From Patescibacteria group bacterium (GTDB taxonomy: Bacteria; Patescibacteriota; Patescibacteriia; Patescibacteriales; GWC2-42-12), in the NCBI GenBank assembly GCA_041662965.1, contig JBAZRI010000003.1:1331-65330 (forward strand): DNA of 64,000 nt, read 5' to 3'. Made by a program: the position numbers and the translations under genes. Position 1 is the stretch's first letter. Every line of letters starts with the position of its first letter. Below are positions 1 through 35,612 of this stretch, one piece after another. Under the pieces are notes generated by a model, which searched no databases, was not told the DNA's origin, and saw only the letters and a program-made list of their open reading frames with translations.

Positions 1-655
1 TATAATTTTCCGCGGTTAATTTTTTGAAAAAATCTCCGCTCGCGGTTGTTCCGATTTTAATTAATTTATCCCACTGGAGCGGAACTTTACCATACCAATC
101 TTTCTCGCTGAAATTTATGCCGTTGATTAAAATTTTCGCCGGCGCGTTTAAAGAGCTTATATCAGTTTCCCTGTCAATCGGTACGTTGCTTTTAAAATCG
201 TTGCCCTCAAACTCGGAATTTTTATTAATCAGCGAATATTTTCCGTCTGAAGTTTTTTTAAAGCGGATAACTTGTTTGCCTGACGGATTTTGCGGTTGGA
301 TGAATTCATTAATGATTTCTCCTCCGCCATTGATATTCGCGACTTTATAATATTCTATCGGCGGCATGCCGGTCGCATCGGCCGCGTAGTCAACTAATTT
401 TAAATCTTCCAGTTTTACCGGTTCGGCCAGCCATTCAATCTCTCCGTCTGGCTTTACTTCTTCAATCGGTCTTGCGGGAGGCACGCCGATTATATTGGTA
501 TTTTTAGGCTCGGTTAAATACCCGGGATTTGCCTCAATGCTCACCTGCGGTTTCTGTTTCTCGGCTATGTTTTGCCAGCTTAAAAAGCCTAAAAATACCG
601 CTCCGGCCAATAAAAAAACACTAAGTAAAATAATAACAATTTTGTTTGAAAACAT
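1..655 (-). CDS. hypothetical membrane-anchored protein, 3' end cut by the window edge
   Basis: My own minus-strand translation from the ATG at 655-653 (MFSNKIVIILLSVFLLAGAVFLGFLSWQNIAEKQKPQV...) stays open to position 1. It has an N-terminal hydrophobic helix. It is missing from the ORF track because it is truncated. The + ORF 24..350 is its antisense shadow. Confidence 0.55.
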   Translation of the reverse strand, partial: MFSNKIVIILLSVFLLAGAVFLGFLSWQNIAEKQKPQVSIEANPGYLTEPKNTNIIGVPPARPIEEVKPDGEIEWLAEPVKLEDLKLVDYAADATGMPPIEYYKVANINGGGEIINEFIQPQNPSGKQVIRFKKTSDGKYSLINKNSEFEGNDFKSNVPIDRETDISSLNAPAKILINGINFSEKDWYGKVPLQWDKLIKIGTTASGDFFKKLTAENY

Positions 656-740
656 AAATTTATAATTAATAATAAAATTTATTTTTTGTAATTTTACCTT
701 ACCATTTATCGGCTAATATTTCAACTTTACTCTAAAATAC

Positions 741-762
741 AAAAAACACCCCTTTCGGGGTG
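741..762 (-). terminator. rho-independent terminator downstream of ftsZ
   Basis: Hairpin CACCCC-TTTC-GGGGTG at 747-762, preceded on the + strand by A6 (741-746). On the minus strand this reads as a hairpin followed by a U-run. Confidence 0.6.
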
Positions 763-959
763 CTTAATATATAAGGAAATGGATTGTCGTGGCTTCGCCA
801 GATCTCGCGTAGCGATGACGAGATCAAGTCCGCAATGACAAATAATATTTATTTTAAAAAATTTTATGGCCGTAGAGCTTTGCTCGCTATAAAATTTTTT
901 AAAATACCTTTAATTTTTGAAAGTATTGAAAACTTTTTTGTAAAAAGTTTTCAAAGATT

Positions 960-2138
960 TTACATCATCTTCTTCCGAATAAACGCCGGAATGCCGAGTT
1001 CGTCTTCTTCTTCGGCCTCGGCGCTCTTTTTCTGCGCCGGCTCCGATTGCGCCTGCTTTAAAGGAGAAATCTTGCTTTTCTTTTTAGTCATCTGCTCTTT
1101 ATTTTCTTTATCCTCTTCCGCGGTAATATAAGGATTAGGCGTATAAATTCTATCCGAAGAAATAACTTCGCTAACGCCGACGCGGCGGCCGTCAAAACCG
1201 GTCGCCACCACGGTTATTTTAATTTCATCTTTATATTTTTCATCAATTACGGCGCCGAAAATAATTTTTGCGTCTTCGTCAACCGAAGAAGTAATTACTT
1301 TAGCCGCCTCGTTAACTTCATGCATGGATAAATTCGGTCCGCCGACGATCGTGAATAATATGCCGCGCGCGCCTTCTATGGACATCTCTAGAAGCGGCGA
1401 ACTAATAGCCGCCTTAGCCGCTTCAATGGCTTTATTCTCGCCCGAAGCCTGCCCGATGCCCATTAAGGCCGAGCCGGCGTTAGCCATAACCGCTTTAACG
1501 TCCGCGAAATCAACGTTGATTAAACCGGGAACGGTGATTAATTCGGAAATGCCCTGAACGCCCTGGCGCAGTACTTCGTCAACCACCATAAAAGCGTCCA
1601 AGAGCGAAGTTTTTTTATCAATCACCTGTAAAAGCTTATCATTAGGAATGGTAATTATGGTATCCACTTTATCGGCCAGCTCGGATAAGCCGCGCTCGGC
1701 GATATTTTTTCTTTGCGCGCCTTCAAAAGCAAACGGCTTAGTTACGACCGCTACGGTTAAAGCGCCTAAGTCTCGGGCGATCTCGGCAATAGAAGGCGAA
1801 GCTCCCGTACCGGTTCCGCCGCCCAGCCCGCAAGTGACAAAAACCATATCCGCGTCTTTTAGCATGTCGCGAATTTCATTTTGCGCTTCTTCGGCCGAAC
1901 GCTTGCCCAATTCCGGATTCATGCCCGCGCCTAAGCCGCGAGTTATGGTTTTCCCGATATGTATTTTTTTTGAAGCTTTATTATAATGAAGAGCCTGAAC
2001 ATCGGTATTAACCGCGATAAACTCAACTCCTCTGATGCCGGAATCAATCATGCGGTTAACCGCGCTGCCGCCCGAACCGCCGACGCCGATGACTTTTATT
2101 TTAGCAAATGTTTCCACGACTGGTTTTACTTCAGCCAT
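960..2138 (-). CDS. ftsZ: cell division GTPase FtsZ
   Basis: 392 aa. Carries the tubulin signature [29 protein letters not shown], and a C-terminal IPAFIRKK tail peptide. It lies directly downstream of ftsA. Confidence 0.97.
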
Positions 2139-2497: not shown

Positions 2498-3763
2498 TTA
2501 CGGTATCAGCGACTTAAACCATTCTTTAACTTGCTCCAGCCCTTTACCGGCCGCGCCGCCGGTCGGCCAGCTTATTCTTGAAGTCTTTTTGCGCTTGGTT
2601 AACTGGTTGCCCCAGGCGACGAGTCCTAAGGCGGTCAGATAATTAACATCATTAACTTTATCAATGGCTAAAGAAATATTTTGGTTAGAGCCTAAGCAGG
2701 CGGGCAAACGCAATTTATTTTTCGCCACCTCCACCAAATCATTTAATTTAGCGCCGCCGCCAATTAAGAAAACTCCGGCCGGCAACATCCCGCTACGGTC
2801 TATCTTTTTTAATTCATTGTCAATTTTTTCAAAAATTTCTTCAACCCGGGCTTCAATGATTTCCGCCACGTATTTTTTAGAAATCACCATGCTGTCTTCG
2901 GAAATATTTTCTTCTTTAGCTAGGTCGCTCGCGTCCACTTCGTCTTTTTTCGTAAATTTATCGCTCTTAGCCGAGCCGTATTCAAGCTTAATTCTTTCGG
3001 CTAAATTAATCGGGCACCTTAAGCCGATAGCCACGTCGGCGGTTATATGCTCGGAGCCGATGGGAATAACCGCGGCGTGGAGCAGTTCGCCTTCTTCAAA
3101 AACCGCTAAACTCGTGGTAGACGAGCCGATATTGATTAAAGCCGCGCCCAGCTCTTTTTGCTTGGCGCCGATAACGACTTCGGCCGCGGCCAAAGGCGAT
3201 AAAACCAGATCTTCAATTTCTAAACTGGTGCGGTAAATCGCTTTGGTTAAATTTTTTATCTGGCTGCTTAGCCCCTGAATAATTAAAGTTTCAACTTCCA
3301 GCCTGACGCCGGTCATGCCGATCGGATCTTTTATGTCTGCCTGGTTATCCACGGAAAATTTAACCGGTATGACATGAAGGATTTCATAATTCGGCGGCAC
3401 GGATAAAGCCTGGGCGGCTTCCACCGCCCGGTTAACGTCATCCTCGGTTATTTCATTATCGCTCCGGCCGACCGCGACCACGCCCTGGCTTTTTTCGCAT
3501 TTTAAATTCGGGCCGTTTATGCCTACCCAGACATTGGTAACCGGCACGCCGATTAATCTTTCGGCTTTTTCCAGGCAGGACGAAATCGCCGAAGTCGCGT
3601 CTTCAATGCTGTTAACCGCGCCCCGGTTTATGCCTTGGGCCGACACGGTAACCGCGCCTAAAATTTGCAATTGTTCGCCTGACTCATTGGCCTTTCTTTG
3701 GCCGACTACCAGCCTGACTGACGTTGAGCCGATATCCAAGCCGGCAATAATATTTTCTTTCAT
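2498..3763 (-). CDS. ftsA: cell division protein FtsA
   Basis: 421 aa actin-fold ATPase with motifs DIGSTSVRLVVG, INIGSSTTSLAVF and LIGGGAKL. It is upstream of ftsZ. Confidence 0.93.
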   Translation of the reverse strand: MKENIIAGLDIGSTSVRLVVGQRKANESGEQLQILGAVTVSAQGINRGAVNSIEDATSAISSCLEKAERLIGVPVTNVWVGINGPNLKCEKSQGVVAVGRSDNEITEDDVNRAVEAAQALSVPPNYEILHVIPVKFSVDNQADIKDPIGMTGVRLEVETLIIQGLSSQIKNLTKAIYRTSLEIEDLVLSPLAAAEVVIGAKQKELGAALINIGSSTTSLAVFEEGELLHAAVIPIGSEHITADVAIGLRCPINLAERIKLEYGSAKSDKFTKKDEVDASDLAKEENISEDSMVISKKYVAEIIEARVEEIFEKIDNELKKIDRSGMLPAGVFLIGGGAKLNDLVEVAKNKLRLPACLGSNQNISLAIDKVNDVNYLTALGLVAWGNQLTKRKKTSRISWPTGGAAGKGLEQVKEWFKSLIP

Positions 3764-3902
3764 AATTATGTCAACTTTTATTAAATGCTTTTTAATGACA
3801 ATGAATACATTATTTATACAGTCTCATTATAACACAAAAATTCTATTTTTAACAATCGCCTAATTGAATTTACAATATAAGTTTCTCTATTGCCGACAAT
3901 TC

Positions 3903-4334
3903 TCACAATAAATACAGATTATAATATAAAATCGCTTTGCCTAAAATATAATCTTTGCAAGGATTAAAGAAGTCTATGCCTTGCGAATTATCCCCTTTGG
4001 TGATAAAACAGCCGTCTTGTTCGCCAATAACCCGATGAACGATTATCCGGCCCCGGGAAGGATCGTAAAAAGCTATAATCTGATTATTTAAATCTTCGCC
4101 TTGAGCTATTGATTTAATAACAACGATATCTCCTTTGGCTATTACCGGCAGCATTGATTCTGATTTAATCAGTAAAATCGGAGCCGGGGCGCCAAAAATT
4201 ATCGGCAAGGAAAAATAAACGATAAAGACTATTTCTAAAATAATCCCCAAGCCAATCTCCAGCTTAAGCCAGTTAAAATTCTTTAATAATTTGCTGTTCA
4301 TTTTCAATCTTAACCAATTTATAATTAATGCCAT
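3903..4334 (-). CDS. signal peptidase I, SipW/archaeal-ER type (S26B)
   Basis: Motifs SESMLP (Ser nucleophile), GDIVV, IIVHRV (His) and TKGDN. It has an N-terminal TM helix. The start is ATG 4334 or ATG 4301; either overlaps the upstream gene. Confidence 0.75.
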   Translation of the reverse strand: MALIINWLRLKMNSKLLKNFNWLKLEIGLGIILEIVFIVYFSLPIIFGAPAPILLIKSESMLPVIAKGDIVVIKSIAQGEDLNNQIIAFYDPSRGRIIVHRVIGEQDGCFITKGDNSQGIDFFNPCKDYILGKAILYYNLYLL

Positions 4335-4926
4335 TCTCTTTCAGAAATAACAAAAAATTATCAATAAATGATACATACGAATCCGTATCATAAACTATAA
4401 CAACTTCTTTGATGGCATAACCGGAGATAATCTTTTGAATATCCCGCGTTTCTTCCTCGCTTTGGCAAAATTTTCCTTTAGAGAGCGGGGTATAATCATA
4501 AGGCCCCGGACTTGGGTTTTGCCAATTGCTCGTGCAAAAATTATCAACAATCACCACGCCGTTATTGTTAGAGATGGCATTCATGAATACTTCTTGATTA
4601 ACTTCGCCTGCTTTAACCGAACTTTTCTCTTTAAATATGGATGGCACGATTATTACGGAATTATTGCCATTAAACGTCTTGCCGACAACTCCGTTTAGAA
4701 CCTTATAAGTGTTAAAATTCAAACCGTTTAAATCGCCTAAAATCAACTTAAAATCACTTTTACCGTTTTTGGCAAAGTAGGAGAAGCTTAATTTTTGCTC
4801 CGTGAATTTAGAACTGATAGCTGAATTAAAATCACTTTGCTTATTTTTCGCGATAACAAACACCAAGGCTAAAACAATCAGCAGGGCGAAAAAAGCCAGA
4901 TTTAATTTTTTATTCTTTCTTTCCAT
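4273..4926 (-). CDS. hypothetical N-terminally anchored protein
   Basis: 217 aa with one N-terminal TM helix. Its ends overlap both neighbours, consistent with an operon. I recognised no motif. Confidence 0.5.
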   Translation of the reverse strand: MERKNKKLNLAFFALLIVLALVFVIAKNKQSDFNSAISSKFTEQKLSFSYFAKNGKSDFKLILGDLNGLNFNTYKVLNGVVGKTFNGNNSVIIVPSIFKEKSSVKAGEVNQEVFMNAISNNNGVVIVDNFCTSNWQNPSPGPYDYTPLSKGKFCQSEEETRDIQKIISGYAIKEVVIVYDTDSYVSFIDNFLLFLKENGINYKLVKIENEQQIIKEF

Positions 4927-7783
4927 TATATTCGTTCAACTCCTTGATATAATTATTGACTTCCTTTACATAGCTGTCGGTGCTGTCAACTTCCGGATAG
5001 AGATAAGTTCGGAGGCCGTGGTAAAAGCCTTGGGACAGGAAGAAATAATCAACAACTTGATCTTTGTCCAGTTTCAGCTCATCGGACTTAAAAGTCAGAT
5101 TGATTGAACCTCCTCTGATAATATGGGCATAATTATAGTCTTGTTTCAGAAGTTTAGAGGTTACGTCCCCGTCTCTTGAGTTAAGCGCTTTGGTCAGTTG
5201 CAGTTCCTCGGTCTTAAATGGCTCGTCTTCAGAAGTTGTTAGGTTTATTTTGTCCAGGCTATGGATGGCTGTCCAGCCAAGCTTTAAAGTAATAATGCCG
5301 TTTTTGTCTATAAAACTGCTAAGATCCACCTTACTAAACTCATTGCTTTTTATGGCTCTGGGATGAAAATCCTGGCCGGCTTTAGCCCATTGTCCTGTTT
5401 TGTCCAGATAACTTGTTAACATTATTGAAGCCGGATAACCTTCCTCAAGCGGGCTGGTAATTAATTTAGGCACAAAATTACTCTCCCAGGAGGTTATGGA
5501 TAGGAAAGGCTTTAAAGCCAAATCATCCACTTTAAACTTTAAGACAATATAGTCGCCCGGATTTTTTCTTATTCTTTTATCATCCGCTTGGCTGATAGCT
5601 TCCAGACATGATTGGCCTTTTTCATCCAGACAGCTAAATGGCTTAATCTCGCCTAGCTTAGAAACGTAAATATCATAATTATCCGAATAGGCCAAAGAAT
5701 CTTTATCATGGACTACTCTGAAAAGCTGAACTCTGTCAAAATTACTCTCTTCCGGCTCTAGTTCCTTAATTTGCAGACTAATTAGATTGTCTTCAATCTT
5801 GGGCTGTAACTTAAGCCTATATATATCCTGGGGCAAAAATGAACGGCCTAATTCATTGTTTTTATACGCCTTCTCAACTTCTTTAATCGTCATGCCATCT
5901 TTTTGGAAATAAGTGCCCATTATGTCATTTTCAATCAGATACTTATCATTTTTGGTTAGAGTGAAGAGGTAGGGGGTGCTCATAGGTGGAGGACATGCCA
6001 CATTCGGTGTAACGCAATATGTTGTCTCTGTCTGCCGCCATCCGCTAGGAGTACACATTCTATAATACCCCGTTTGAGCGCAGGTATCGCAAGCAACTGA
6101 ACCAGTAGACTGAGTAAGCAAGTTTGTCGCCCAGCAAGTTCCTCCGCAAGCAGGGCAAGAAATAGAGCCTCCCGCCGTTGCCTGCGTTGTTCCATCGGGA
6201 AATTTTATGCCTCCGCTTGTTGATTCAATTGTGCCATTCACGGTAAGTTTTTGTCCCGGATTCGCCGTGCCGATGCCGACATTGCCGCTTAAATTTACTC
6301 TGAATAATTGTTCTAACGGACCGCTTATCCCATTGCCTCGGCCGACCACAAAAAGAGCGTTATTTAAATAAGCTCCGCTGGCAGTTGAATTAGAGCCATC
6401 AGTAGACACGGAAAGCACGGGAGTTGTGCCTACATAATACGAACCGCCATTAGTTCCGGCTGAACTAAAAATTCCAGCTCCAGATCCATCGTAAATTGTG
6501 AGTTTTCTAGTTGGCGCCACCGTGCCGATGCCGACATTCCCCTCATTAGTTAAAGTTAAAATATTTTTCTCGCCTGCCGGAGTATTATTCCAAAATCTTA
6601 AATCCTCGGTAGTTCTATCTTGATAAACGCCCCAATGCTTATTTGCTCCGGCTACGCTCTGAATATCAATTTCCGCGTTATCGCCGCTGGCGCCGTAAAC
6701 ATGGAGTAACTTATTGGGAGAAGCCGTGCCGATACCAACCTTGCCTTTTACGCTTCCCGGCCAATCAAATATAATATTACCGCCGCTGTCATTTGATCTG
6801 TTGAAAATAGTCATTAGCCTTGTCGCGGCAGTGAAGGAAAGGCCCATTTCATATTGCGAACCGTCTTGATATCTGCTGGCTATTTTATAATCACCCCAGG
6901 TTGTTCTGATATTCCCGGCCACTTCTAATTTATCCTCGGGCGCCAGCGTGCCGATGCCGACGCTGCCAGCGAAATAAGACTTGGCGGGATTATTAGAATA
7001 AAGCGACCACGTGTTGGCGTTGTAGGCTGTTCCGTCAATATAAACTCCATAATTAGAGGCTGCGGCGTTGCCTTGAAAATATCCGCCGATATTCTGCGCC
7101 GCTCCGGCGCCGGCCGCTTGGGCAACAATGCCGAAATTAGAACCGGTTGTCGCGTTGACCAAAACATTTATCCCCCTATCATTAGCCGCGGCTGATTGAA
7201 TATCAAGTTTATAGGCTGGCGATAAGCCAATCCCAACTTTATTGCCTATAATTAAATTTCCAGCAGGATTAAGCCTTGCCTGCTCAACCCCGCCGACATA
7301 AAACACATGGCTCACGCCTGCCGGCACTATATAATCAAGCTGTGAACCTGAAATTCCGAATCCAAGGACATTAATAGTATCATCATACATTATCATCTTC
7401 GGGTTTGCCCCGGCCGTTGAACTATAGGTTGCCCCTAAATTAATCGCATCAGGAGCCGCGCTGCCTACTGAAGCAAAATTGCCTATTTGTAATTTTTCAG
7501 TCGGATCCATCGTGCCGATGCCGACGTTGCCTTGCCCAACAATTAGGCCGGACACTGCCGGCGCGGTATTAGCAATATATAAAGCGCCTTGCATTGTCTG
7601 CACTAAATTTGAACCGCTGTTTATAGGCGCGGAACAGCCTGCGGTTCCGGACGTACAGGTTGGCGGATTGGCTAAAGGCGCGGTCCAGTCGGCTAAAAGA
7701 GATTGAAAAGAGATAGATAGGCCGAGGGTAAAAATAACGGCGCCAATAAAGAGAAAGGAAATTTTAGAATTTTTTCTAAACAT
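4910..7783 (-). CDS. large secreted fibre-like repeat protein
   Basis: 957 aa with a signal/TM N-terminus. Six spaced copies of G-x-VGIGT/L-x2-P-x2-3-KL-x-V/I, then a Cys-rich knot (CPACGGTCW...CDTCAQTGYYRMC), then an unassigned C-terminal domain of about 350 aa. Confidence 0.75.
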   Translation of the reverse strand: MFRKNSKISFLFIGAVIFTLGLSISFQSLLADWTAPLANPPTCTSGTAGCSAPINSGSNLVQTMQGALYIANTAPAVSGLIVGQGNVGIGTMDPTEKLQIGNFASVGSAAPDAINLGATYSSTAGANPKMIMYDDTINVLGFGISGSQLDYIVPAGVSHVFYVGGVEQARLNPAGNLIIGNKVGIGLSPAYKLDIQSAAANDRGINVLVNATTGSNFGIVAQAAGAGAAQNIGGYFQGNAAASNYGVYIDGTAYNANTWSLYSNNPAKSYFAGSVGIGTLAPEDKLEVAGNIRTTWGDYKIASRYQDGSQYEMGLSFTAATRLMTIFNRSNDSGGNIIFDWPGSVKGKVGIGTASPNKLLHVYGASGDNAEIDIQSVAGANKHWGVYQDRTTEDLRFWNNTPAGEKNILTLTNEGNVGIGTVAPTRKLTIYDGSGAGIFSSAGTNGGSYYVGTTPVLSVSTDGSNSTASGAYLNNALFVVGRGNGISGPLEQLFRVNLSGNVGIGTANPGQKLTVNGTIESTSGGIKFPDGTTQATAGGSISCPACGGTCWATNLLTQSTGSVACDTCAQTGYYRMCTPSGWRQTETTYCVTPNVACPPPMSTPYLFTLTKNDKYLIENDIMGTYFQKDGMTIKEVEKAYKNNELGRSFLPQDIYRLKLQPKIEDNLISLQIKELEPEESNFDRVQLFRVVHDKDSLAYSDNYDIYVSKLGEIKPFSCLDEKGQSCLEAISQADDKRIRKNPGDYIVLKFKVDDLALKPFLSITSWESNFVPKLITSPLEEGYPASIMLTSYLDKTGQWAKAGQDFHPRAIKSNEFSKVDLSSFIDKNGIITLKLGWTAIHSLDKINLTTSEDEPFKTEELQLTKALNSRDGDVTSKLLKQDYNYAHIIRGGSINLTFKSDELKLDKDQVVDYFFLSQGFYHGLRTYLYPEVDSTDSYVKEVNNYIKELNEYNGKKE

Positions 7784-7805: not shown

Positions 7806-8177
7806 TTATTTTTTAAAAATTTCCCAAAAATACGGAAAAAATATAATCGCGCCGGTAATAATCGCGGCCAAAGAGGCTAATAACACTCCGGCCGCCATAA
7901 TATCTTTAATCTCTTTGACATAAGTATTAATTCTCGGCTTTAAAACATCGGTAATGCGCTCAACCGCGCTGTTGGCGATTTCCGCGACTAAAACTAAAGA
8001 GATCACCAGCGTTAAAATCGCCCATTCAATCCGGCTGATGCAAAAATAAAATCCTAAAATTACAACCGCCAAACTGACAAAAGTCTGGATTTTTAAATTC
8101 TGCTCTTCGCGGAAAGTTTTAAATAATCCTTTATAAGCGTAACCGAAGCTTTTAAATAATCTGCTTATTTTTATCAT
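7806..8177 (-). CDS. dgkA: diacylglycerol/undecaprenol kinase (DgkA family)
   Basis: 123 aa with 3 TM helices. YAYKGL and EIANSAVERITD motifs match prokaryotic DAGK. Confidence 0.85.
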   Translation of the reverse strand: MIKISRLFKSFGYAYKGLFKTFREEQNLKIQTFVSLAVVILGFYFCISRIEWAILTLVISLVLVAEIANSAVERITDVLKPRINTYVKEIKDIMAAGVLLASLAAIITGAIIFFPYFWEIFKK

Positions 8178-8638: not shown

Positions 8639-9685
8639 TTAATCTTTTAAATTAAACGACTTAACCATCATTTGAAAAATATTAAAATACTCCAAAATAT
8701 TTCCGCCGCCCGGATTATAGGTTAAGCTGAATATGTAATTTTGTTTTTTATCAATTAAATATATGTTTAAGCCGTCAGGGCTTTTAATCCCCTGCCAACC
8801 TGCCTGTCCGGTAGGCAGGTTAGAGCCGCTTACCCGGTCGGTTTCATTAATGGTTAAAACGCCGAGCTGCTCCATGTACCAAGCGTCAAGCGCCTGCTTA
8901 TCAACGTTAGGCTGGACGATAACCTGCACGAATTGATTGTCGCCGGTTTTAAACATCAGCGAATCGTCTCCGCCGTTAACGCTGGTTTGCCAAGTCGTAG
9001 GATAAAGCAAATCATAAGAGAAAGTCTTATTCTCATAAAGCGAAATATTGGAGTTAGCGGTTAATTTCCCCGCGCCGGCCGGATTATATAAATTTATAAG
9101 TTCAGAGCCGTCCGTATAGCCGTCGCCGTCGGTATCAGGCACAATCGCGCTGGCATTTAAAAGAATTTCTTCCATATCGGTTAAGCCGTCATTATCGCCG
9201 TCCGCGCCAACGCGCAAACTAAGACCCTCTTCCCCGGACGCAATTTCCGGAGTCGTCGTGGCTATGGTCGTAGTCGCGGTCTCTCCGCCAAGAGGCAAAG
9301 TTGTTATTTCCGTGCCGGTGGCGGTTAGAGCGCTCGAGGCTTCAGGTTTTTTCTCGGTTTTTTCCCCGGCCTGGCTCGCCTCTGTCGGCTGATTATTTTC
9401 CGCGGTTAAAGACGGCTCTTGGGTAATAACTACGCTTGGCTTTCTAAATAAAAAATAATACAAGCCGGCCGAAGCTATCAGTAAAACTACGGCTCCGCCG
9501 ATAATTATTACTAAGCCGGTAGTTTTAGCACTGTCCTTTTTAACCGGCTGATTGCGAAAACGCTCGGGCATGACATGAATAGCTATATTATCGGCTTTAA
9601 CCGGCTCTTTTAGCGCCGGACCTTGAATTTCTTCCTTGATTGCTTCAGTTTGCCCTGATTTGTTTTTTCTAAAAAAATTAAACAT
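8639..9685 (-). CDS. membrane-anchored protein with thrombospondin type-3-like Ca-binding repeats
   Basis: One TM helix, a Thr/Glu-rich linker, and DGDNDGLTDMEE / DTDGDGYTDGSE motifs. Confidence 0.6.
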   Translation of the reverse strand: MFNFFRKNKSGQTEAIKEEIQGPALKEPVKADNIAIHVMPERFRNQPVKKDSAKTTGLVIIIGGAVVLLIASAGLYYFLFRKPSVVITQEPSLTAENNQPTEASQAGEKTEKKPEASSALTATGTEITTLPLGGETATTTIATTTPEIASGEEGLSLRVGADGDNDGLTDMEEILLNASAIVPDTDGDGYTDGSELINLYNPAGAGKLTANSNISLYENKTFSYDLLYPTTWQTSVNGGDDSLMFKTGDNQFVQVIVQPNVDKQALDAWYMEQLGVLTINETDRVSGSNLPTGQAGWQGIKSPDGLNIYLIDKKQNYIFSLTYNPGGGNILEYFNIFQMMVKSFNLKD

Positions 9686-9700
9686 ATTGTAATGGCTGAT

Positions 9701-10354
9701 TTATTTTATTGATTTATCTATTTCATACAACCTGCCTTGGCCGTTGGGATTATAGTTATTTTTAACTTCGGCTCCGTCCTTAAAGCCGTCTCCGTCCGTA
9801 TCAGCCTTCAAAGGATCGGTTTTATAAACTTTTACTTCTTCGCGGTCGGTCAAACCGTCAGAATCGCTATCAGGATTATTAGAATTAATTCCAAGGCCAA
9901 CTTCTTCTTCGTCGGTCAAACCGTCAGAATCGCTATCGACCGGCTGGGCAACTATCGGCTGATTTAGCTGATTAGCGGCATTATTAATTTCTCCCGTAGC
10001 CGGCGCCGTAACTTCGGGCGTAAGCTGATCATTATTAACTTCTTTGTTTACCTCCAGATTAGCCGGAGCGGTTTTTTTAGCCATTAACCTTAAGCCAAGA
10101 TAGCCGCCGCCGAAGACAATAATTAAAACGCCTAGTATCAAGCCGAAAATTATTTTCTTATTTTTTAGCCAGCCATCTTCCGCCGGGATGACGGTCCCGA
10201 TAGCCGGCGGTAAATTAATATCTCTCGGCCTAAGCGCTTCGGGCTTAACGATTTTGTCCACTTCGGAAAAAATGTCTTCGGTTTTAGGCGGCGTCTGACC
10301 GGCCGGCCGAACGCCGCTGCCGGATGCCGCGTTTTTATCCAATTCGTCAAACAT
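9701..10354 (-). CDS. membrane-anchored protein with thrombospondin type-3-like repeats
   Basis: One TM helix and the motifs DSDSDGLTDEEE, DSDSDGLTDREE and DTDGDGFKDGAE. Confidence 0.6.
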   Translation of the reverse strand: MFDELDKNAASGSGVRPAGQTPPKTEDIFSEVDKIVKPEALRPRDINLPPAIGTVIPAEDGWLKNKKIIFGLILGVLIIVFGGGYLGLRLMAKKTAPANLEVNKEVNNDQLTPEVTAPATGEINNAANQLNQPIVAQPVDSDSDGLTDEEEVGLGINSNNPDSDSDGLTDREEVKVYKTDPLKADTDGDGFKDGAEVKNNYNPNGQGRLYEIDKSIK

Positions 10355-10388
10355 AAAGTTATTTCGGGGACTGCCCCCAATTAATAAA

Positions 10389-13300
10389 TTATAATATTGT
10401 TAAATTAATTTCCGCGGATTTGTTGCTTTCGTTGGCTTTAAGGTCTAAAGCGCTAACCGCGAAATAATAAGTAACTCCGGCGGTTAAATTACTGATGGTA
10501 ATCTCACATTGCCCGGTAGCGGCCGAACATTTATTTTTTTCCAAATTAACCGCCGCGCCCAAAGAACCGCTCTCGGCGCCGTAATAAATTTTATAAATCG
10601 CCGTATCGTCCGTATTGGCCGTCCAGCTTAAAGTGGCTTTAGTGGTAGTAGCCGTACCGGCTAAGCCTTGCGGAGTTTGCGGCGCCCAAACATCGGCCGG
10701 AACCGCCGTAGTCTCGTTGGAATAACTGCTCTCGGCTCCGCTCTTATATTTAGCCGTAACCGCGAAATAATATTTTACCCCATTGGTTAAATTGCCGACT
10801 ATCGCCGGATTGGCGGCCGTGCCCGGCAAAGCGGCGGAAATTGATTGGCTGTAACTGCCGGATTTAACGCCATAATAAATTAAATATTTATCAAAAATTT
10901 GATCGGGCGGTACGGCGATAGCCTGCCAAGTCAAGCCGGCCTTGCCGCCCTGCTTAATCGCGTCATTAGTCGTCGTGGCTAGGCCTGAAGCAATGTCCGG
11001 CGTGTCTTCTCTAAAGAAATAAAACTCTTTTAAAATATTTTGCTCGGCTGATGAACCGCGGATTACGGTCGTATCGCTTAAAATAGGCGGTAAATCATCT
11101 ATGGTGCCGGCTCCTTCCGTATCGCGGCAATAATATAATTCAAAATTAGCGTCAGAACAACCGCCGGCCGTGACAGTGCAGTTAACAGACGCATCGCGCC
11201 ACGGCTCCCAGCTACCATCAGCTTTAAAAGGCGGCCAAGGATTAGAACATAAAAAGACATAAATTTCAGCCTCTTTTTCTTTAAACTGCCCGACGGTTGA
11301 TAATTTACTGATTTCATCCTGCGTAATAGTGGTTTTGGCATGAAGCAAAGTATTGGCTTCTTTAACGTTTTGCGCCACCAGCGTTTGAGCCGGATTATCG
11401 TCAAGCGCGTTTTCCCCATTTTTAAACTTCACCACCGATTTATCGTCTATAGTCCAATCCCAGCGCCAATTATAAACATTTTCAATCGGCATGATCGGCT
11501 GATTGGCCGCGTAATATGCCGTAGCGCGGAAAACTTTATCGCCGTCTCTTATGGTATCATAAGCGGCATTAGCCGAATTATCATCGGCCGAATCGTTAAT
11601 TGCCGTGGTAAATAAATAGCCTGACGGATTAATATTAACATAATTAACTAAGCAAATTCCGTTATTGGCCGCGGTATTAGGCTTAGCGGTAAACGACCAA
11701 ATTTTTCCTTTAAAATTAACGCCGTTGAAAGTTTCTTCATTAGTTGATTTCAAGCCTATGCCCGCCTGGCTTAAAACTCCATTATTCATAGCGTCGGCAA
11801 TATCAGAGTCGCCTTTGATTATAACATAATATTTTCTATTGGCCTCTAAAACTTTTTGCAGTTTAAATTCCAGCACGGTTTTTTCATCAGCCGTAACATA
11901 GCCGCCAGCCAGCCCGGAGACAGCGCAAAAATTTCCGGTTAAAGCCTGGGCTTGATTAATGAAAATCTTATTTAATATCGGCAGGCCAGCCAGCCAGCTG
12001 GTTAATCTGGCCAGCAAGCTCGGTTTATAAGCCGCGGTTAGATATTTAGTATTGGCCGGGCATTGGTCAGAGCCATATTCTCCGGCCACGATAATATTGC
12101 CGTTAAAAGTGCTTATTTGCATGGGCTGATCAAAAGTGGCTTTTATCAGGCTGTTGCGGCAAACATCAATGGCGCCGCCAGCCGGCATAGTCTCAATCAC
12201 GCTCGGCCTGGCATGACAGCAAGTATCATAGCCGCAGCCAACCGCGTTAGCATCGCCGCATTCATTGTCTCTGGAACAGCCGCAGCATAACCCGCGCTTA
12301 TCGCCCGAACAAGGCTCTTGGTTAGGTTTACAAGTTAAAAGAGGGTTTAAAGTTCTACAGCTATCCGGCGCGGCCAAAGGATCGCAGCAGCAAGTGCCGC
12401 AATTCGGAGCCGCCGGCCCGTCGCCGTTTTCATTGATACAAGCAAAGCCGACGCATTTATTAATATCGCAGCTCTGCGTTGTGGTGGCGCTACTAAAACA
12501 AGTATTGCCGAATTGAGCTACTGGCCGGCATTTATTATTACATTCAGTTAAAGTCTTATAATTCGGCGAGCTGGAAGAAGCCACGGCCGTATTAGAACAG
12601 CTGCCGGTATTGCATTCATAATAAGCGCAGTAATTATAGGCCGGCAGGCCGGCGGCATACGGCGCTTCGCCGCCGCGGCAAGCATTATTCTTTTCCGCGT
12701 CAACACAGCAGGCGCCCGCGCCCAGGCCGCTGCAAACCGCCGCGTCGCTGATCTGGGCGCAGTCTTGGCAAATGCCGGACGGATTAGCCGTATCAATTAA
12801 ACAGAATTTGCCGCTGGTTCCCGAACAATTGCAGGCCTCGTTATGCTCGGCTTGAGTCGTACCCGCGCTGGCGCAGCCGGAGCAATGGCCATAAGTGTTG
12901 GTATTGGCGGTTATGTCGCTGCCGCATTCGCCTTCGCACTTTAAAGGCGAGCAGCAATCCTCGCTGTCATGGCCGATGCGGCAGCAGCATTCGCAGCTGG
13001 CGTCATCATTCTTCACACATTTATCATCATTGCCGCAAACCGAACCGACCGGGCACAGGCTCTGCTCAACCGCGCAAACGCCATTAACCGCGGCGGCCGT
13101 TTCTTTAAGGCATTTAAAACCCGTAGCGCAAGCCGAACAAGTCGTATTATTTTCCACGCAGCGGCCGCCGGAAATACTGGTCCAGCCGGCCGGGCAAGAA
13201 GTGCTAATTTCTATAATCCATCTATTTTGATTATTATAAGCCAGACAATCAGCCGTGGCAGTGGCCGGAACTCCGCTAAGCGTATAATTAACAACTTTAG

Positions 13301-15752
13301 GCAGAGCGCAGGTTTGGAGCCTAACGAAGAAGGGGCGATTAGATTGAGCCTTTTTAACGCACTTATCAATCGCCGACCGATAGATACATAAATTAGTTTG
13401 GCAAACATTAAAATTATTACAGCTATGGTCGCAAGTACCGGTTTGACTGATTTCACCGCCGGCGTAAGTTGAACATTTTCCCGGCGAATTCGGGCAGAAA
13501 TAGCTTGAAGAGCATTGGCTTAAGCCGTAGCTTGAGCAAGCTTCGCCGTCAGTGCATTCATCATAGCCGTCATTATCCAAATCTCGGCAGCCGCCGGTTG
13601 AACAGCACTCTAAATCACCGCTACATTGATCCGGCTGATTGGGCGGACAGCTATCGCATTGGCCGGTAAGGTGATTGCATTGGTTGGGGGCGCAGCAGTT
13701 AAAGGTAACCGGACTGCCCGGCGGAGCATTAGGTATATCACATTTTTCTTGGCCGATTAAACAATCTCCGGCCACGGTGGAAAACGTCCAGCCAAAACCG
13801 CAGCCTCCGGGCGCTCCCTGGGCGCAAGTGCCGGCCGCGCGGCAGATGCCTGACCAGTAAGTTCCACCGCCGCAGCATTCTTCGCCTAATTCGCATTCGG
13901 AATTAGCCGAACACTTGCCCACGCGAAATGGCAAAGGATTGCTAAGATAGCCTTGATTATTAATTATTCTAAACGGACCATTAACCGAATCAATCGGCAC
14001 GTTATTATCAACTTTCTGATCGGTCCAACTTGTTATGGACGCGTCCTTATTATTAAAATACTGGGCGCGGCCGCTTCCCTGATTAGCGCCGAATCTTTCG
14101 CCGTTAGCGGTTACCGGCCAGCCGACCGGACCGTTATTCGGGTTTAACAGACAAAGGCCGGGATTAAGCGCCTCGTCATTAATGGTAAAATCGGCCGGCA
14201 AACTTACTTTATCGTCAGAATTAGTAACTTCAACTTTATAATCGCCTAAATTATTTACTTCCGGCACTTTAACCACGATATAAGTATTATGCCACCAATT
14301 ATTACGGCAAGGCTCGGGAAAATCAATGTCCGCGTTAATTTTATTGCTTTGATCGGCCGGTAAATAAAATTTCACCGAACTTTTTTGCGCGTTATATATT
14401 TTAAAATTACGGCCATAAATGGTTATGTACTGGCCGGCCGGGCCATTATCCGGCTCAATATAATCAATGGCCGGATTGGTATCCGCGTTATTTATTATGG
14501 TAAAAATAAGATCATTGGAATTAATGTTGTTTGTTTGGACAAAGACCGAATTCCTGCCGTCTCTGATATTAGGCACGGTGGCGTCAACCGAAGTATTGGT
14601 CCAGTTGGCAATATCATTGGCCGCTATCGGACTGGCGCTACTGCCGAAAAAAACCGAATGAGGGGAAAGGTTAAAAGCCGTGCCTTGCACGTTAAAAGCG
14701 TCAGCCAGACCGCCGCTCGCCGGATCAACTAAGCAGATGCCCGGACGGTGAATATTATTGACTGAAAAATCATTAATATGCGCGCCGCGGTTATTATCCG
14801 TGGTGTCATAATAATTTCTGCTGTCAATTACTTTAATCGGCCCGCTAACCGCTCCAGCGGGCACCACGGCGATAATTTGGTTATCTTGCCAGAAACTAGA
14901 ACATAATGGATTAACTTGATTGGGAAAACCGGCAATTTTATCGTCAGCAGGATTATTAGGATCGCCCATAAAAATTACTTGTCCGGTCGTGGTGCCGAAA
15001 TATCCGCCGCCGATGGTAATAAAATTACCAACCGCGCCGTTAGGCGTTGAAGAAGCGTCAATCGGGCTCACCCAGGCGATTAAGGGCGTTTTAATGCAAG
15101 TGCAATTATCACTGGACGAACAAACTAAATTATTGGCGCAGTCGCCGGCTTGGCAGTCGGGCAGATTAGCATCAACGTCGCAGCTCTCGCCTTCTAAAGG
15201 CTGGGTAATCCTTCTGCAGATACAATCAATGCTTGAACAATTAAAACCCGTGGCGCATCGGCCGAACGCGCAACTCATATCTTGCAAATCAGTTAAGCAA
15301 GGATCCCCTTCTCCCGGCAAACCGCCGCCGCCCGGAGGCACTACGCCTCCGCCGCCAGTGTTAGTCGTGCCGTCTCCGCCGGTAGCATTTAATAAACGAT
15401 TTAAAACAAAGCTGGCGATAGCGAACGAAGCTAAGCAAATCACCAAGCCGATAACCGCGCCGATTAATATTTTCTTGGCTTTTTCAATTTTATCCGCTTC
15501 GCCCGCGGCCGTCATCCATAGCCAGCCAGCGTAAATTATCAAGCCCACGGCGATAATGCCTAAAAAACCCAAAAATATTCTAATTATATTGGCCGCGATA
15601 ACGCGCGGGTCGTTAGCCGCGCTTAAGCCCGTGCCTTCGGCGTAGTTTAAGCCGACTTCCGGCCCGGTAGCGGCCAAAACGAAATCAGCCACAGTAAAGA
15701 TAGCTGCAAGTAAACAGATAAAAAATAATAATTTTTTTATTCTAATTTTCAT
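10389..15752 (-). CDS. giant (about 1787 aa) Cys-rich surface protein with an N-terminal TrbC/VirB2-like 'T4SS pilin' membrane domain
   Basis: N-terminus AAGPEVGLNYAEGTGLS...IIAVGLIIYAGWLWMTAAGEADKIEKAKKILIGAVIGLVI (two-helix pilin-like domain), followed by a Gly/Pro linker. Then Cys-rich modules, IPT/TIG-like segments (GNFITIGGGYFG, GQYITIYGRNFK), a long Cys-rich region, and two FN3-like repeats at the C-terminus. I trimmed the start to ATG 15752 because the codons upstream read through a repeat element. Confidence 0.8.
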   Translation of the reverse strand: MKIRIKKLLFFICLLAAIFTVADFVLAATGPEVGLNYAEGTGLSAANDPRVIAANIIRIFLGFLGIIAVGLIIYAGWLWMTAAGEADKIEKAKKILIGAVIGLVICLASFAIASFVLNRLLNATGGDGTTNTGGGGVVPPGGGGLPGEGDPCLTDLQDMSCAFGRCATGFNCSSIDCICRRITQPLEGESCDVDANLPDCQAGDCANNLVCSSSDNCTCIKTPLIAWVSPIDASSTPNGAVGNFITIGGGYFGTTTGQVIFMGDPNNPADDKIAGFPNQVNPLCSSFWQDNQIIAVVPAGAVSGPIKVIDSRNYYDTTDNNRGAHINDFSVNNIHRPGICLVDPASGGLADAFNVQGTAFNLSPHSVFFGSSASPIAANDIANWTNTSVDATVPNIRDGRNSVFVQTNNINSNDLIFTIINNADTNPAIDYIEPDNGPAGQYITIYGRNFKIYNAQKSSVKFYLPADQSNKINADIDFPEPCRNNWWHNTYIVVKVPEVNNLGDYKVEVTNSDDKVSLPADFTINDEALNPGLCLLNPNNGPVGWPVTANGERFGANQGSGRAQYFNNKDASITSWTDQKVDNNVPIDSVNGPFRIINNQGYLSNPLPFRVGKCSANSECELGEECCGGGTYWSGICRAAGTCAQGAPGGCGFGWTFSTVAGDCLIGQEKCDIPNAPPGSPVTFNCCAPNQCNHLTGQCDSCPPNQPDQCSGDLECCSTGGCRDLDNDGYDECTDGEACSSYGLSQCSSSYFCPNSPGKCSTYAGGEISQTGTCDHSCNNFNVCQTNLCIYRSAIDKCVKKAQSNRPFFVRLQTCALPKVVNYTLSGVPATATADCLAYNNQNRWIIEISTSCPAGWTSISGGRCVENNTTCSACATGFKCLKETAAAVNGVCAVEQSLCPVGSVCGNDDKCVKNDDASCECCCRIGHDSEDCCSPLKCEGECGSDITANTNTYGHCSGCASAGTTQAEHNEACNCSGTSGKFCLIDTANPSGICQDCAQISDAAVCSGLGAGACCVDAEKNNACRGGEAPYAAGLPAYNYCAYYECNTGSCSNTAVASSSSPNYKTLTECNNKCRPVAQFGNTCFSSATTTQSCDINKCVGFACINENGDGPAAPNCGTCCCDPLAAPDSCRTLNPLLTCKPNQEPCSGDKRGLCCGCSRDNECGDANAVGCGYDTCCHARPSVIETMPAGGAIDVCRNSLIKATFDQPMQISTFNGNIIVAGEYGSDQCPANTKYLTAAYKPSLLARLTSWLAGLPILNKIFINQAQALTGNFCAVSGLAGGYVTADEKTVLEFKLQKVLEANRKYYVIIKGDSDIADAMNNGVLSQAGIGLKSTNEETFNGVNFKGKIWSFTAKPNTAANNGICLVNYVNINPSGYLFTTAINDSADDNSANAAYDTIRDGDKVFRATAYYAANQPIMPIENVYNWRWDWTIDDKSVVKFKNGENALDDNPAQTLVAQNVKEANTLLHAKTTITQDEISKLSTVGQFKEKEAEIYVFLCSNPWPPFKADGSWEPWRDASVNCTVTAGGCSDANFELYYCRDTEGAGTIDDLPPILSDTTVIRGSSAEQNILKEFYFFREDTPDIASGLATTTNDAIKQGGKAGLTWQAIAVPPDQIFDKYLIYYGVKSGSYSQSISAALPGTAANPAIVGNLTNGVKYYFAVTAKYKSGAESSYSNETTAVPADVWAPQTPQGLAGTATTTKATLSWTANTDDTAIYKIYYGAESGSLGAAVNLEKNKCSAATGQCEITISNLTAGVTYYFAVSALDLKANESNKSAEINLTIL

Positions 15753-15753
15753 T

Positions 15754-16234
15754 GTCATTGCGAGCGCCATTTTTGTCATTCCCGAAGCCGCAGGCTGTCG
15801 GGAATCCAGGGGTTAAACGCATAATTAATATTTATAGCATATCAAGAAATAAATCGTACCAGGTTGGGTTGTCTTTTTCTATTAAATTTATTTTCCATTG
15901 CCGATTCCATTTTTTCAATTGTTTTTCTCTTAATATAGCGTCTTGAATATATTGATATTCTTCAAAATATATTAATTTATCAATTTTATCCCCCTCCGGG
16001 GATAAATATTTAGCCGTGAAACTTTGAGGATTTTGTTTTAATTTATGTTGAAAACTTCTATTGAATAAATCTTTGGTTACTCCGATATATAATGTGCCGT
16101 TTCTTTTGCTCGCCAGTATATAAACATAATAAATATGGGCTTTCTTAGTTGTATTATACATAGCATTCATTTCATTCGCGCCTGGATTCCCGCCTGCGCG
16201 GGAATGACAAAGAAATTGGCTTTCTCGCAATGAC
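15754..16234 (-). mobile_element. GIY-YIG ORF flanked by roughly 55 bp terminal inverted repeats
   Basis: The left end GTCATTGCGAG...GTCATTCCCG..GGGAATCCAGG (15754-15810) is the reverse complement of the right end CCTGGATTCCCGCCTGCGCGGGAATGAC...CTCGCAATGAC (16181-16234). The element fills the spacer between two surface-protein genes. Confidence 0.65.
15832..16170 (-). CDS. GIY-YIG nuclease family protein (UPF0213-like)
   Basis: YYVYILASKRNGTLYIGVT...R...H, then EKQLKKWNR. I trimmed the start to ATG 16170 because the ORF-track N-terminus translates the inverted repeat. Confidence 0.8.
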   Translation of the reverse strand: MNAMYNTTKKAHIYYVYILASKRNGTLYIGVTKDLFNRSFQHKLKQNPQSFTAKYLSPEGDKIDKLIYFEEYQYIQDAILREKQLKKWNRQWKINLIEKDNPTWYDLFLDML

Positions 16235-17974: not shown

Positions 17975-18059
17975 GGAAAAAATGAATTTAAAAACTTTGA
18001 CTTTTGCACAGTCTTGTAATAATATTATAACATAAACAAAATAGCAAAAGCAAACAATC

Positions 18060-35048: not shown

Positions 35049-35612
35049 TTAATAATTATATGCTGGCGCGGAAAAAACGTCTATCCGGCTGAACGGCCAG
35101 CCGCGGAGCAAAACTCGGCCGGTAATTAATTTTTTATCCACCGGGCCGAAGCTTCGGGAATCTTTTGATGAATTCCTGTTATCGCCTAAAACATAGTACT
35201 CGCTGTCGCTTAAAGTTATAATTTCTTCGTTCAAACCGTAGGTTTTATCGCCTGATTGCAAATACGTTTCTTCAAGTTTTACGCCCAAAGGATTGGCTTG
35301 ATTATAGACATAAGCAAACCCGTCTTTAATTTGAATCTTTTCTCCGGGCAGGCCGATAATGCGTTTTATAAAATACTCTTCATGGTTTCTTGGATACTTA
35401 AAAACTATTATGTCGCCTCGCTCGGGCGTATGAAAGCGATAGCTGATTTCATCAATTATCAAATATTCTTTATCGTAAAAATTAGGCTCCATGGAAGCGC
35501 CCTTAACATAAAACGGCTGGATCAAGTAATACCTGACTGGGATAATAATGGCCAAGGAAATCGCCACTACTTTAATTAATTCAAAAACATAGCTGAAAAA
35601 ATTTTTCACCAT
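35049..35612 (-). CDS. lepB: signal peptidase I (bacterial LepB type)
   Basis: GASMEPNF (Ser), IKRIIGLPGE (Lys box) and GDNRNSSKDSR. Confidence 0.9.
   Translation of the reverse strand: MVKNFFSYVFELIKVVAISLAIIIPVRYYLIQPFYVKGASMEPNFYDKEYLIIDEISYRFHTPERGDIIVFKYPRNHEEYFIKRIIGLPGEKIQIKDGFAYVYNQANPLGVKLEETYLQSGDKTYGLNEEIITLSDSEYYVLGDNRNSSKDSRSFGPVDKKLITGRVLLRGWPFSRIDVFSAPAYNY

Follow-up and report, generated by a model that had tools for sequence, protein, structure and literature searches.

A cassette shared by CPR bacteria and DPANN-type archaea links a predicted fibre adhesin to an active-looking ER-type signal peptidase

The window analysed here, a 64,000-nucleotide stretch of the genome of a Patescibacteria group bacterium (GenBank assembly GCA_041662965.1, contig JBAZRI010000003.1, positions 1,331 to 65,330 of the forward strand), contains three overlapping genes, denoted A, B and C, that encode a large secreted protein, a small membrane-anchored protein and a signal peptidase of the endoplasmic reticulum (ER) type, respectively. 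On balance, these genes are best interpreted as a mobile module that combines a putative trimeric adhesin with its own minimal peptidase and an anchored partner that lacks zinc ligands and weakly resembles M14 peptidases. Confidence is greater in the core of this interpretation, a conserved mobile module in which a fibre adhesin is combined with an active S26B peptidase, than in the whole, and less in the specific roles of the three proteins.

7783..4910, minus strand: gene A, open reading frame (ORF) of 957 amino acids (NCBI name: hypothetical protein WCV70_02095)
4926..4273, minus strand: gene B, 217 amino acids, membrane-anchored protein
4301..3903, minus strand: gene C, 132 amino acids, signal peptidase I (NCBI name); alternative start at 4334, giving 143 amino acids

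The layout of the locus agrees with the initial annotation in all coordinates of the overlaps. The stop codon of A (4910-4912) lies downstream of the ATG of B (4926), resulting in an overlap of 17 nucleotides, and B (stop codon at 4273-4275) overlaps C by 29 nucleotides if C starts at 4301 or by 62 nucleotides if it starts at 4334; the start at 4301 is preferred, being used by the NCBI call and all homologues. The 957-amino-acid ORF with its six GNVGIGT-type motifs and signal-like N-terminus was found as originally described; the motifs, which had been placed at about 6232-7540, occupy 7531-6227.

The three genes are inherited together. Searches seeded first with C, next with the C-terminal head of A and finally with B yielded the related contigs L001/L002, L003/L004, L005, L008 and L010, to which a metagenome scan seeded with the peptidase alone added L013-L018. 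B is located directly upstream of close homologues of C in 12 of the 12 contigs with visible upstream DNA, and each of the 10 contigs extending that far has A upstream of B: C adjoins both B and A in L001, L003, L005, L008, L010, L014, L015, L017 and L018, and in L002, L004, L013 and L016 it adjoins B, beyond which the contig ends. In the scan seeded with the peptidase alone, six of the seven matches are cassettes. The three-gene cluster is thus a co-inherited unit conserved across the related contigs, and the proposal that the peptidase belongs with a fibre-like protein withstood a check for peptidases unlinked to fibre-like genes in relatives, as the close homologues of C were found only beside B and A-type proteins. 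Because B immediately precedes C, usually with an overlap (1-62 nucleotides), these two genes are probably translationally coupled. The cassette is rare, with about a dozen loci found. In L001, a gene for an IS200/IS605-type Y1 transposase (8848-9276) is located between A and B, and L002 is alike in this respect.

The part of A that accompanies the peptidase is not the fibre repeats. The GNVGIGT repeats highlighted in the initial annotation are one of several interchangeable stalks; these are unrelated between cassettes, the constant parts of A being the head, usually the Cys-rich neck that precedes it, and, in several members from the Candidate Phyla Radiation (CPR), the signal-peptide region. 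The stalk is a GNVGIGT beta-helix in the window and L014, an array of decapeptide VTxAKLxD repeats in L005 and L015, and a series of Cys-rich modules in L003 and L008. In L010, a metagenome-assembled genome (MAG) contig labelled Candidatus Peribacteria, three tandem A paralogues are followed by B and C (9380-15843), and in all three a collagen G-X-Y stalk, recognized by eye, directly precedes the head (Pfam Collagen, 60-63 bits for the two paralogues submitted). The idea that the GNVGIGT repeats travel with the peptidase is accordingly rejected. The genes of L010 are intact only under genetic code 25, in which UGA is a sense codon.

The A protein of the window consists of four parts:

7691..7783, minus strand: signal peptide of A, amino acids 1-31, predicted to be of the Sec type (N-terminus comparison)
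6173..7531, minus strand: fibre shaft, amino acids 85-537, with six GNVGIGT..P..KL repeats, ending in GGIKFPDGTTQATA
5981..6172, minus strand: Cys-rich neck, amino acids 538-601 (64 residues), with 8 Cys
4913..5980, minus strand: C-terminal head, amino acids 602-957 (356 amino acids), which begins with STPYLF and defines the cassette

The N-terminus of A comprises MFRKNSK, a hydrophobic run and QSLLA|DW, and by the -3/-1 rule, the cleavage site is likely to be SLLA|DW. A motif in the signal region, LGLS(I/V)SxxSLxAxW(T/S/Q)AP, is shared with the CPR homologues L001_A/P0035, P0024 and P0040, and every full-length cassette-linked A protein has a Sec-type signal peptide with A or S at position -1.

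The shaft repeats conform to the consensus [G/K/S]xVGIG(T/L)..P..KL and start at amino acids 85, 181, 273, 347, 415 and 500. Amino acids 364-577 of A align with the Bdellovibrio protein Bd2133 (PDB 8OND, a construct that spans Bd2133 residues 662-1031 only; E-values of 4.9e-13 and 1.6e-12), the alignment covering amino acids 364-537 if the query is limited to the N-terminal half of A. This alignment includes the end-of-shaft motif GGIKFPDG..Q.TA, and the sequence GGIKFPDGTTQATA at the end of the A shaft parallels the Bd2133 shaft immediately before its tip. Additionally, A matches tail-fibre families of the PHROG database (5.6e-15 and 3.4e-13) as well as annotated tail fibres of cyanophages and pelagiphages. 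Because the shaft aligns with both the solved Bd2133 structure and the PHROG tail-fibre families, the GNVGIGT repeats are not a chance pattern, and the original description of A as a fibre protein holds. Pfam yields no match to Peptidase_S74 in A, which places the protein in the subgroup of the mosaic adhesive trimeric (MAT) fibres without this domain; indeed, A has no Pfam match at E<=1 and no NCBIfam match.

In MAT fibres, a signal peptide precedes a long, trimeric shaft of the beta-helical type, and the C-terminal tip is adhesive; an S74 chaperone is present at the end of some of these proteins but not of others (PMC10769870). With the non-S74 representative Bd2133, A shares the homologous shaft, the GNxGIGT..P..KL repeats, the GGIKFPDG..Q.TA end motif and a beta-rich tip other than S74, and with the MAT proteins in general, a Sec signal peptide and a predicted role as a surface adhesin. 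The differences concern the overall architecture and the context: in the MAT proteins, the N-terminal domain (about 130 amino acids, beta-rich) is constant and the tips vary, whereas in the cassette, the head is constant and the stalks vary; neither a dedicated peptidase nor a partner resembling B has been reported for MAT genes; and the MAT host is a diderm predator, whereas the cassette host is a CPR bacterium. Judging from its sequence, A is an adhesin of the MAT/tail-fibre type rather than a polymerising matrix subunit. The neck that follows the shaft is disordered in the AlphaFold2 (AF2) model (predicted local distance difference test, pLDDT, <50), and most A homologues contain 8-14 Cys in the 80 amino acids ahead of the head.

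The head, the composition of which is very different from that of the rest of A, starts at (S)TPYLF and is 33-47% identical between homologues. In the AF2 model, built with 29 sequences, it is an all-beta domain with two sandwich or jelly-roll-like subdomains and a terminal helix (pLDDT >90 across most of the domain; predicted template modelling score, pTM, 0.81). None of the Pfam and NCBIfam models matches the head, and a PDB sequence search with the head profile found no relatives. Foldseek searches of the PDB and BFVD yielded partial jelly-roll matches over 150-180 residues, to CBM32, the Eph ligand-binding domain and APC10, none of which was assigned to the head, there being no convincing homologue of the whole domain. 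An exhaustive profile search retrieved 1254 representative proteins at E<=1e-3, 40 of them at E<=1e-30. In close relatives, the head is C-terminal and is preceded by modules of the Ig-like, TSP1 or Hint type or by the N-terminus of a type IV pilin. The latter (N_methyl) is present in P0037, and P0028 (= L009_A, from an Omnitrophota MAG; L009 3337-4947) has, by eye, a Flp-like GQTSLEY N-terminus; these two proteins, which come from outside CPR and DPANN, place the head distally, and the same head may also be displayed on pili. In distant relatives, a core of about 270 amino acids is internal to multidomain secreted proteins that carry, for instance, Peptidase_C25, NHL repeats and type IX secretion system (T9SS) sorting domains.

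Because it terminates collagen or beta-helical trimeric stalks or a pilin N-terminus, the head is best read as the distal part of the fibre that would bind ligands and nucleate the trimer. In Bacillus anthracis BclA and in C1q, a collagen stalk is followed by a C-terminal beta head from which trimer formation starts and which bears the binding surface. The L010 proteins have the same layout, with the head directly after the collagen G-X-Y region; unlike those of BclA and C1q, this head consists of about 356 amino acids in two sandwich subdomains and is not detectably TNF/C1q-like in Foldseek searches.

The phage-like shaft raises the possibility that the cassette is a prophage remnant, with A being a phage tail fibre and B its leftover assembly chaperone. 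The matches of the shaft to the PHROG families and to the cyanophage and pelagiphage tail fibres are what this scenario would predict, but A carries a signal peptide for Sec and B is anchored in the membrane, the cassette is flanked by dgkA and ftsA rather than by phage genes, no match to the head was detected in 50,697 phage genomes, B and C do not match tail-fibre or assembly PHROGs, and conservation of the cassette extends to precisely three types of gene. The scenario is highly improbable, and on the strength of the PHROG and phage-genome searches, an origin from a prophage is rejected both for the head and for the complete cassette, the phage-like character of the shaft notwithstanding.

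Another explanation of a constant C-terminal domain encoded next to a small anchored protein is that the domain is a delivered effector, the N-terminal parts are delivery stalks, and B is a membrane-anchored immunity protein. The gene order, in which a small protein comes after a large secreted one, is reminiscent of polymorphic toxin loci, two members of the close family, P0042 and P0044, have Hint/pretoxin-HINT ahead of the head, and the organisms involved are episymbionts that act on host cells. The polarity, however, is the reverse of that in polymorphic toxins, given that the constant part is the C-terminus in this case and the N-terminus is the variable one; furthermore, the head is a large double beta-sandwich with parts resembling lectins and carbohydrate-binding modules rather than an enzyme-like domain, the distant relatives carry this domain internally in secreted proteins with terminal T9SS sorting domains, and the co-inherited peptidase is left unexplained. 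A toxin-immunity pair is therefore very unlikely, and an adhesin with a distal head remains the preferred interpretation of A.

The residues that make C an apparently active enzyme, and the second signal peptidase encoded in the window, are as follows:

4155-4157, minus strand: Ser49 of C
4035-4037, minus strand: His89 of C
3990-3992, minus strand: Asp104 of C
3972-3974, minus strand: Asp110 of C
35049..35612, minus strand: housekeeping LepB, bacterial-type signal peptidase I, outside the cassette

C scores 58.1 bits with TIGR02228 (archaeal-type signal peptidase I), above the cutoff of 51.85, and under the cutoffs of the Pfam S24 and S26 models; in PHROG, it has only weak matches of the S24-repressor type. 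A profile of C and its relatives matches human SEC11C (3.6e-10) and SEC11A (5.1e-9). Residues S49, H89, D104 and D110 are invariant among the seven aligned sequences, the invariant motifs SDSMxP, VHRV and TKGDNxxxD align with SGSMEP, VHRV and TKGDNN of SEC11A/SEC11C, and a single N-terminal helix anchors the protein. Taken together, these features identify C as an active-looking S26B enzyme (Sec11/SipW-type) that is additional to LepB and has Ser-His-Asp catalytic residues instead of a Ser-Lys dyad. On both counts, the initial annotation, which recognized an ER-type Ser-His signal peptidase and a separate ordinary LepB at 35049, is borne out, the latter by a full-length match to Peptidase_S26 (1.7e-42).

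Within its superfamily, C resembles Sec11 and the archaeal signal peptidase I (SEC11A/SEC11C, PDB 7P2P, 7P2Q) in the motifs SxSMxP, VHRV and TKGDN...D and in the single N-terminal anchor, and differs in being much shorter, in lacking the PYIG segment, in being a private copy within an adhesin cassette, and in coexisting with a LepB-type enzyme. The cassette-type peptidases form a distinct short subfamily of 117-133 amino acids that end about 25 residues past the GDN motif and lack the C-terminal hydrophobic PYIG segment. This segment, which reads VPYIG in SEC11, is retained (as IPYIG) by the peptidase of L019, a more distant, archaeal protein that is the nearest non-cassette relative found, adjoins genes for RNA polymerase and TFS, and is presumably a housekeeping copy. 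A signal-peptidase-family gene within a surface-fibre locus is also found in streptococcal pilus islands, where SipA/LepA, S26A-like proteins with lost catalytic residues, are chaperones for sortase-built pili; unlike these, C keeps Ser, His and Asp, and a sortase or an LPXTG motif is absent here.

The transmembrane stretch of B (amino acids ~9-26, DNA ~4849-4902) is part of a long N-terminal helix (amino acids 2-39) that is followed by an alpha/beta ectodomain in the AF2 model (pLDDT 78.7, pTM 0.73). The family is small (11 clusters). The invariant residues include G64, D65, G68, N120, N129, F130, C131, W135, C154, S156, E157 and E159; the conserved pattern, GD..G, DNFC, C.SE.E and a Cys pair around a flexible loop, suggests a binding or catalytic site of an unspecified kind. 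Pfam yields no match to B at E<=1, NCBIfam only sub-threshold ones (FtsL and PRK15486), and sequence searches of the PDB, including a profile search, no relatives. Foldseek shows weak matches to M14 carboxypeptidases, AstE and MpaA (E-values of 4e-4 to 4e-3, template modelling scores of 0.39-0.49), and one homologue matches Pfam Peptidase_M14 at E 0.17. There is, however, no invariant His among the 11 B sequences, and the window B contains no histidine at all, so that the zinc ligands HxxE...H are absent, and B as a zinc M14 carboxypeptidase or amidase is rejected.

The truncation of C and its tight coupling with B might mean that B is an obligatory accessory of C, similar to Spc3/SPC22-23, and that the B-C complex processes A. 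The strict adjacency of the two genes, usually with overlaps of 1-62 nucleotides, the shortness of C compared with SEC11, its end lying only about 25 residues past GDN, and the Spc3-like topology of B, with an N-terminal anchor and an external domain, all fit such a two-subunit peptidase. Yet the B ectodomain is predicted to be alpha/beta and weakly M14-like, as opposed to the partner of SEC11 in the eukaryotic complex (PDB 7P2P), which is a beta-sandwich, and no similarity of B to SPC subunits was detected in the Pfam, NCBIfam and PDB sequence searches. A two-subunit enzyme appears distinctly unlikely.

The cassette is found on both sides of the boundary between bacteria and archaea. Archaeal affinity is evident from the gene content of L005 (ribosomal protein S17e, archaeal histone, CDC48), L006 (Cdc6, TrmB, Hjc, RNase P p30) and L015 (aRF1 with an intein), and L008, L012 and the window come from Parcubacteria/Patescibacteria. 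The neighbours of the cassette in the window are bacterial, including genes for FtsZ, FtsA, DgkA, YbeY, giant T4SS-pilin-like proteins, RelA/SpoT, TopA, Der, HisRS and LeuRS. In L015, the aRF1 gene that adjoins the cassette (4006-4809, minus strand) holds an intein remnant, and a 178-amino-acid protein encoded upstream at 545-1081 (plus strand) shares the unusual N-terminus of the A protein of this contig, MRIExNIxxxHxLVILLFI...GLVVAYGG. In neighbour-joining trees, which are midpoint-rooted and without bootstrap and hence indicative only, the head of A, B and C form the same two clades, with the archaeal and CPR members interleaved in clade I; in the trees of A and C, the window pairs with the archaeal L015. 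It seems that the cassette moves between CPR bacteria and DPANN-type archaea as a unit.

In the genome of the window, the site of insertion is given by the genes that flank the cassette:

7806..8177, minus strand: dgkA (Pfam DAGK_prokar), the upstream flank of A
2498-3763: ftsA, the other flank, which together with dgkA brackets the cassette

The window and L012 are syntenic over nine genes with 30-78% identity (those for the 607-amino-acid protein, the 1796-amino-acid protein, the thrombospondin type-3 (TSP3) proteins, a 348-amino-acid protein, YbeY, DgkA, FtsA and FtsZ; identity of 78% for FtsZ, 72% for FtsA and 54% for DgkA). In L012, dgkA and ftsA are adjacent, and only in the window are A, B and C located between them; the A homologue of L012 lies elsewhere on the contig, with no B or C beside it. 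The cassette was inserted between dgkA and ftsA in the window genome. A terminator and promoter scan, which is uninformative on the operon, found no clear terminator after C and a sole promoter-like site that precedes ftsA. This near-consensus sigma-70-like promoter (3747-3774, minus strand: TTGACA, 16 nucleotides, TATTAT; 11 of 12 matches) has its -35 element in the 139-nucleotide spacer after C and its -10 element overlapping the first ftsA codons, which suggests that ftsA kept or gained a promoter of its own after the insertion.

Given the archaeal connection, the peptidase could be a passenger, that is, a general archaeal-type enzyme that happened to lie beside the adhesin genes in a DPANN donor, was carried along with them, and in the CPR host is either redundant with LepB or serves many substrates, without any special relation to A. 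S26B is the native archaeal type of signal peptidase, the nearest non-cassette relative found is the archaeal enzyme of L019 with its RNA polymerase and TFS neighbours, the cleavage site of A looks generic, and A-type proteins occur without B and C nearby. All these observations are compatible with a passenger; what tips the balance is that the cassette C belongs to a separate short subfamily (117-133 amino acids) without the C-terminal segment kept by L019, always follows B, usually in overlapping frames, in archaeal and bacterial contigs alike, and has a tree that mirrors those of A and B. A housekeeping gene is not expected to be so fixed at 33-50% identity. A passenger origin is unlikely, albeit far from negligible, and an enzyme that belongs to the adhesin module remains the preferred interpretation.

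The gene content, the catalytic residues, the linkage, the distribution across the domains, the insertion, the homology of the shaft and the fold models are direct results; A as the substrate of C, trimerisation, the adhesin function and the role of B are inferred. Under the preferred interpretation, A would be exported via Sec, and C, anchored beside the translocon, would cut off the signal peptide of A near SLLA|DW on the outer side of the membrane. The matured A would form a trimeric fibre consisting of the beta-helical shaft, the disulfide-rich neck and, at the distal C-terminal tip, the head, which would be the ligand-binding or trimer-nucleating part. B would be a type-II membrane protein made in step with C that, with low confidence, could either retain or assemble the matured fibre at the membrane of cells that have no outer membrane, or be an accessory subunit of C. 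The private peptidase would free the module from dependence on the processing enzyme of the host, so that it could work in either domain, and this independence fits its presence in both.

Several points weigh against this interpretation. The cleavage regions of the A proteins, with V/L/T at -3 and A/S at -1, look acceptable to either C or LepB. The head occurs without B and C nearby in L009 (Omnitrophota MAG), L011 (Planctomycetales MAG), L012 (Parcubacteria) and L007, so that some A-type proteins can evidently do without B and C in their vicinity. Trimerisation and ligand binding are attributed to the head from context, and the role of B, held with low confidence, by topology, linkage and a weak fold match. 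Finally, the trees are of the indicative kind described above, and several contigs in the dataset are short metagenome fragments of unassigned taxonomy.

A close known parallel is the tapA-sipW-tasA operon of Bacillus subtilis, in which SipW processes TasA and TapA (PMC9245690). Both loci are small operons that combine an ER/archaeal-type peptidase, additional to the housekeeping LepB-type enzymes, with a secreted surface or fibre protein and accessory proteins, and in both, the catalytic residues of the peptidase are intact and its gene is conserved in an operon with secreted partners. Unlike TasA/camelysin, a jelly-roll subunit that polymerises by donor-strand exchange, A is a 957-amino-acid tail-fibre-like adhesin, and unlike TapA, a beta-sandwich, B is predicted to be alpha/beta, M14-like and anchored; the gene order, A-B-C, is also different, and the cassette spans the boundary between bacteria and archaea. 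The comparison with the Bacillus system does not extend to homology of the individual proteins: C scores 28.5 bits with the SipW equivalog model NF046067, failing the cutoff of 190, and Peptidase_M73 and the SipW-cognate signal peptide (TIGR04088) match none of the proteins. The likeness is in operon logic only, with homology limited to the S26B superfamily. For the archaeal bundling pili, a dedicated peptidase gene was not identified near the ABP operon (PMC9245690). The proposal of a dedicated fibre-processing system is supported with regard to the conserved linkage, the fibre shaft and the extra S26B peptidase; the repeats as the conserved partner and any homology with TasA, TapA or the SipW equivalog are not supported. 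A description of this cassette was not found in the literature on CPR and DPANN in connection with signal peptidases. An ER-type peptidase in an operon for a surface fibre is of a known kind; the head and B are unannotated partner families, and the spread between the domains is unusual.

Several other features of the window, located away from the cassette, deserve mention. An Rfam scan yielded nothing at the gathering thresholds. Two giant secreted proteins of 1796 and 607 amino acids (10389-15779 and 16244-18067, both minus strand) start with a T4SS_pilin domain, after which come TIG, Big_5 and fn3 domains as well as long stretches rich in Cys, and are kept in the syntenic L012 with 35% and 43% identity, respectively. 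Two membrane-anchored proteins with TSP3 Ca-binding repeats (8639-10354, minus strand), likewise kept in L012, separate the gene for the giant surface protein from ybeY. The stretch of the window with the highest AT content (26001-28000, GC 0.275) overlaps a gene for an 898-amino-acid type IIG-like restriction-modification fusion (26477-29173, minus strand) that consists of HSDR_N, an Eco57I/MmeI methylase and a TaqI_C specificity domain and is probably a horizontally acquired defence gene. The leucyl-tRNA synthetase (53041-55935, minus strand) contains a NUDIX insert (amino acids 399-516) directly after the editing domain, and a 497-amino-acid protein (22603-24096, minus strand) is a fusion of a PD-(D/E)XK/Cas4-like nuclease with an RNase_H_2 superfamily domain.

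Little is known about the means by which CPR bacteria and DPANN archaea attach to their hosts, and the cassette is a testable candidate for this role. A broader reading, tentative and short of probable, is that it represents a hitherto undescribed surface-display system exchangeable between the domains, made up of a minimal private S26B peptidase, a membrane partner with a carboxypeptidase fold but no zinc, and adhesins that have interchangeable stalks and a common new head, with which these ultrasmall episymbionts would attach to their hosts, the system perhaps being transferable because it is independent of the signal-peptide processing and anchoring machinery of the recipient. The candidate adhesin head, well folded in the model, has no counterpart in Pfam, NCBIfam or the PDB, and belongs to a superfamily with more than 1,000 representative sequences. 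The rarity of the cassette implies that it is not a general mechanism. A three-gene unit present in both domains, with agreeing trees, is a clear-cut case of a secretion-dependent trait passing from one domain to the other, and the arrangement itself suggests a reason, namely, that the unit brings its own processing enzyme. If the proposed role of C is true, the cassette would add an independent second case, outside the Bacillus TasA paradigm, of an ER-type signal peptidase dedicated to a surface fibre.

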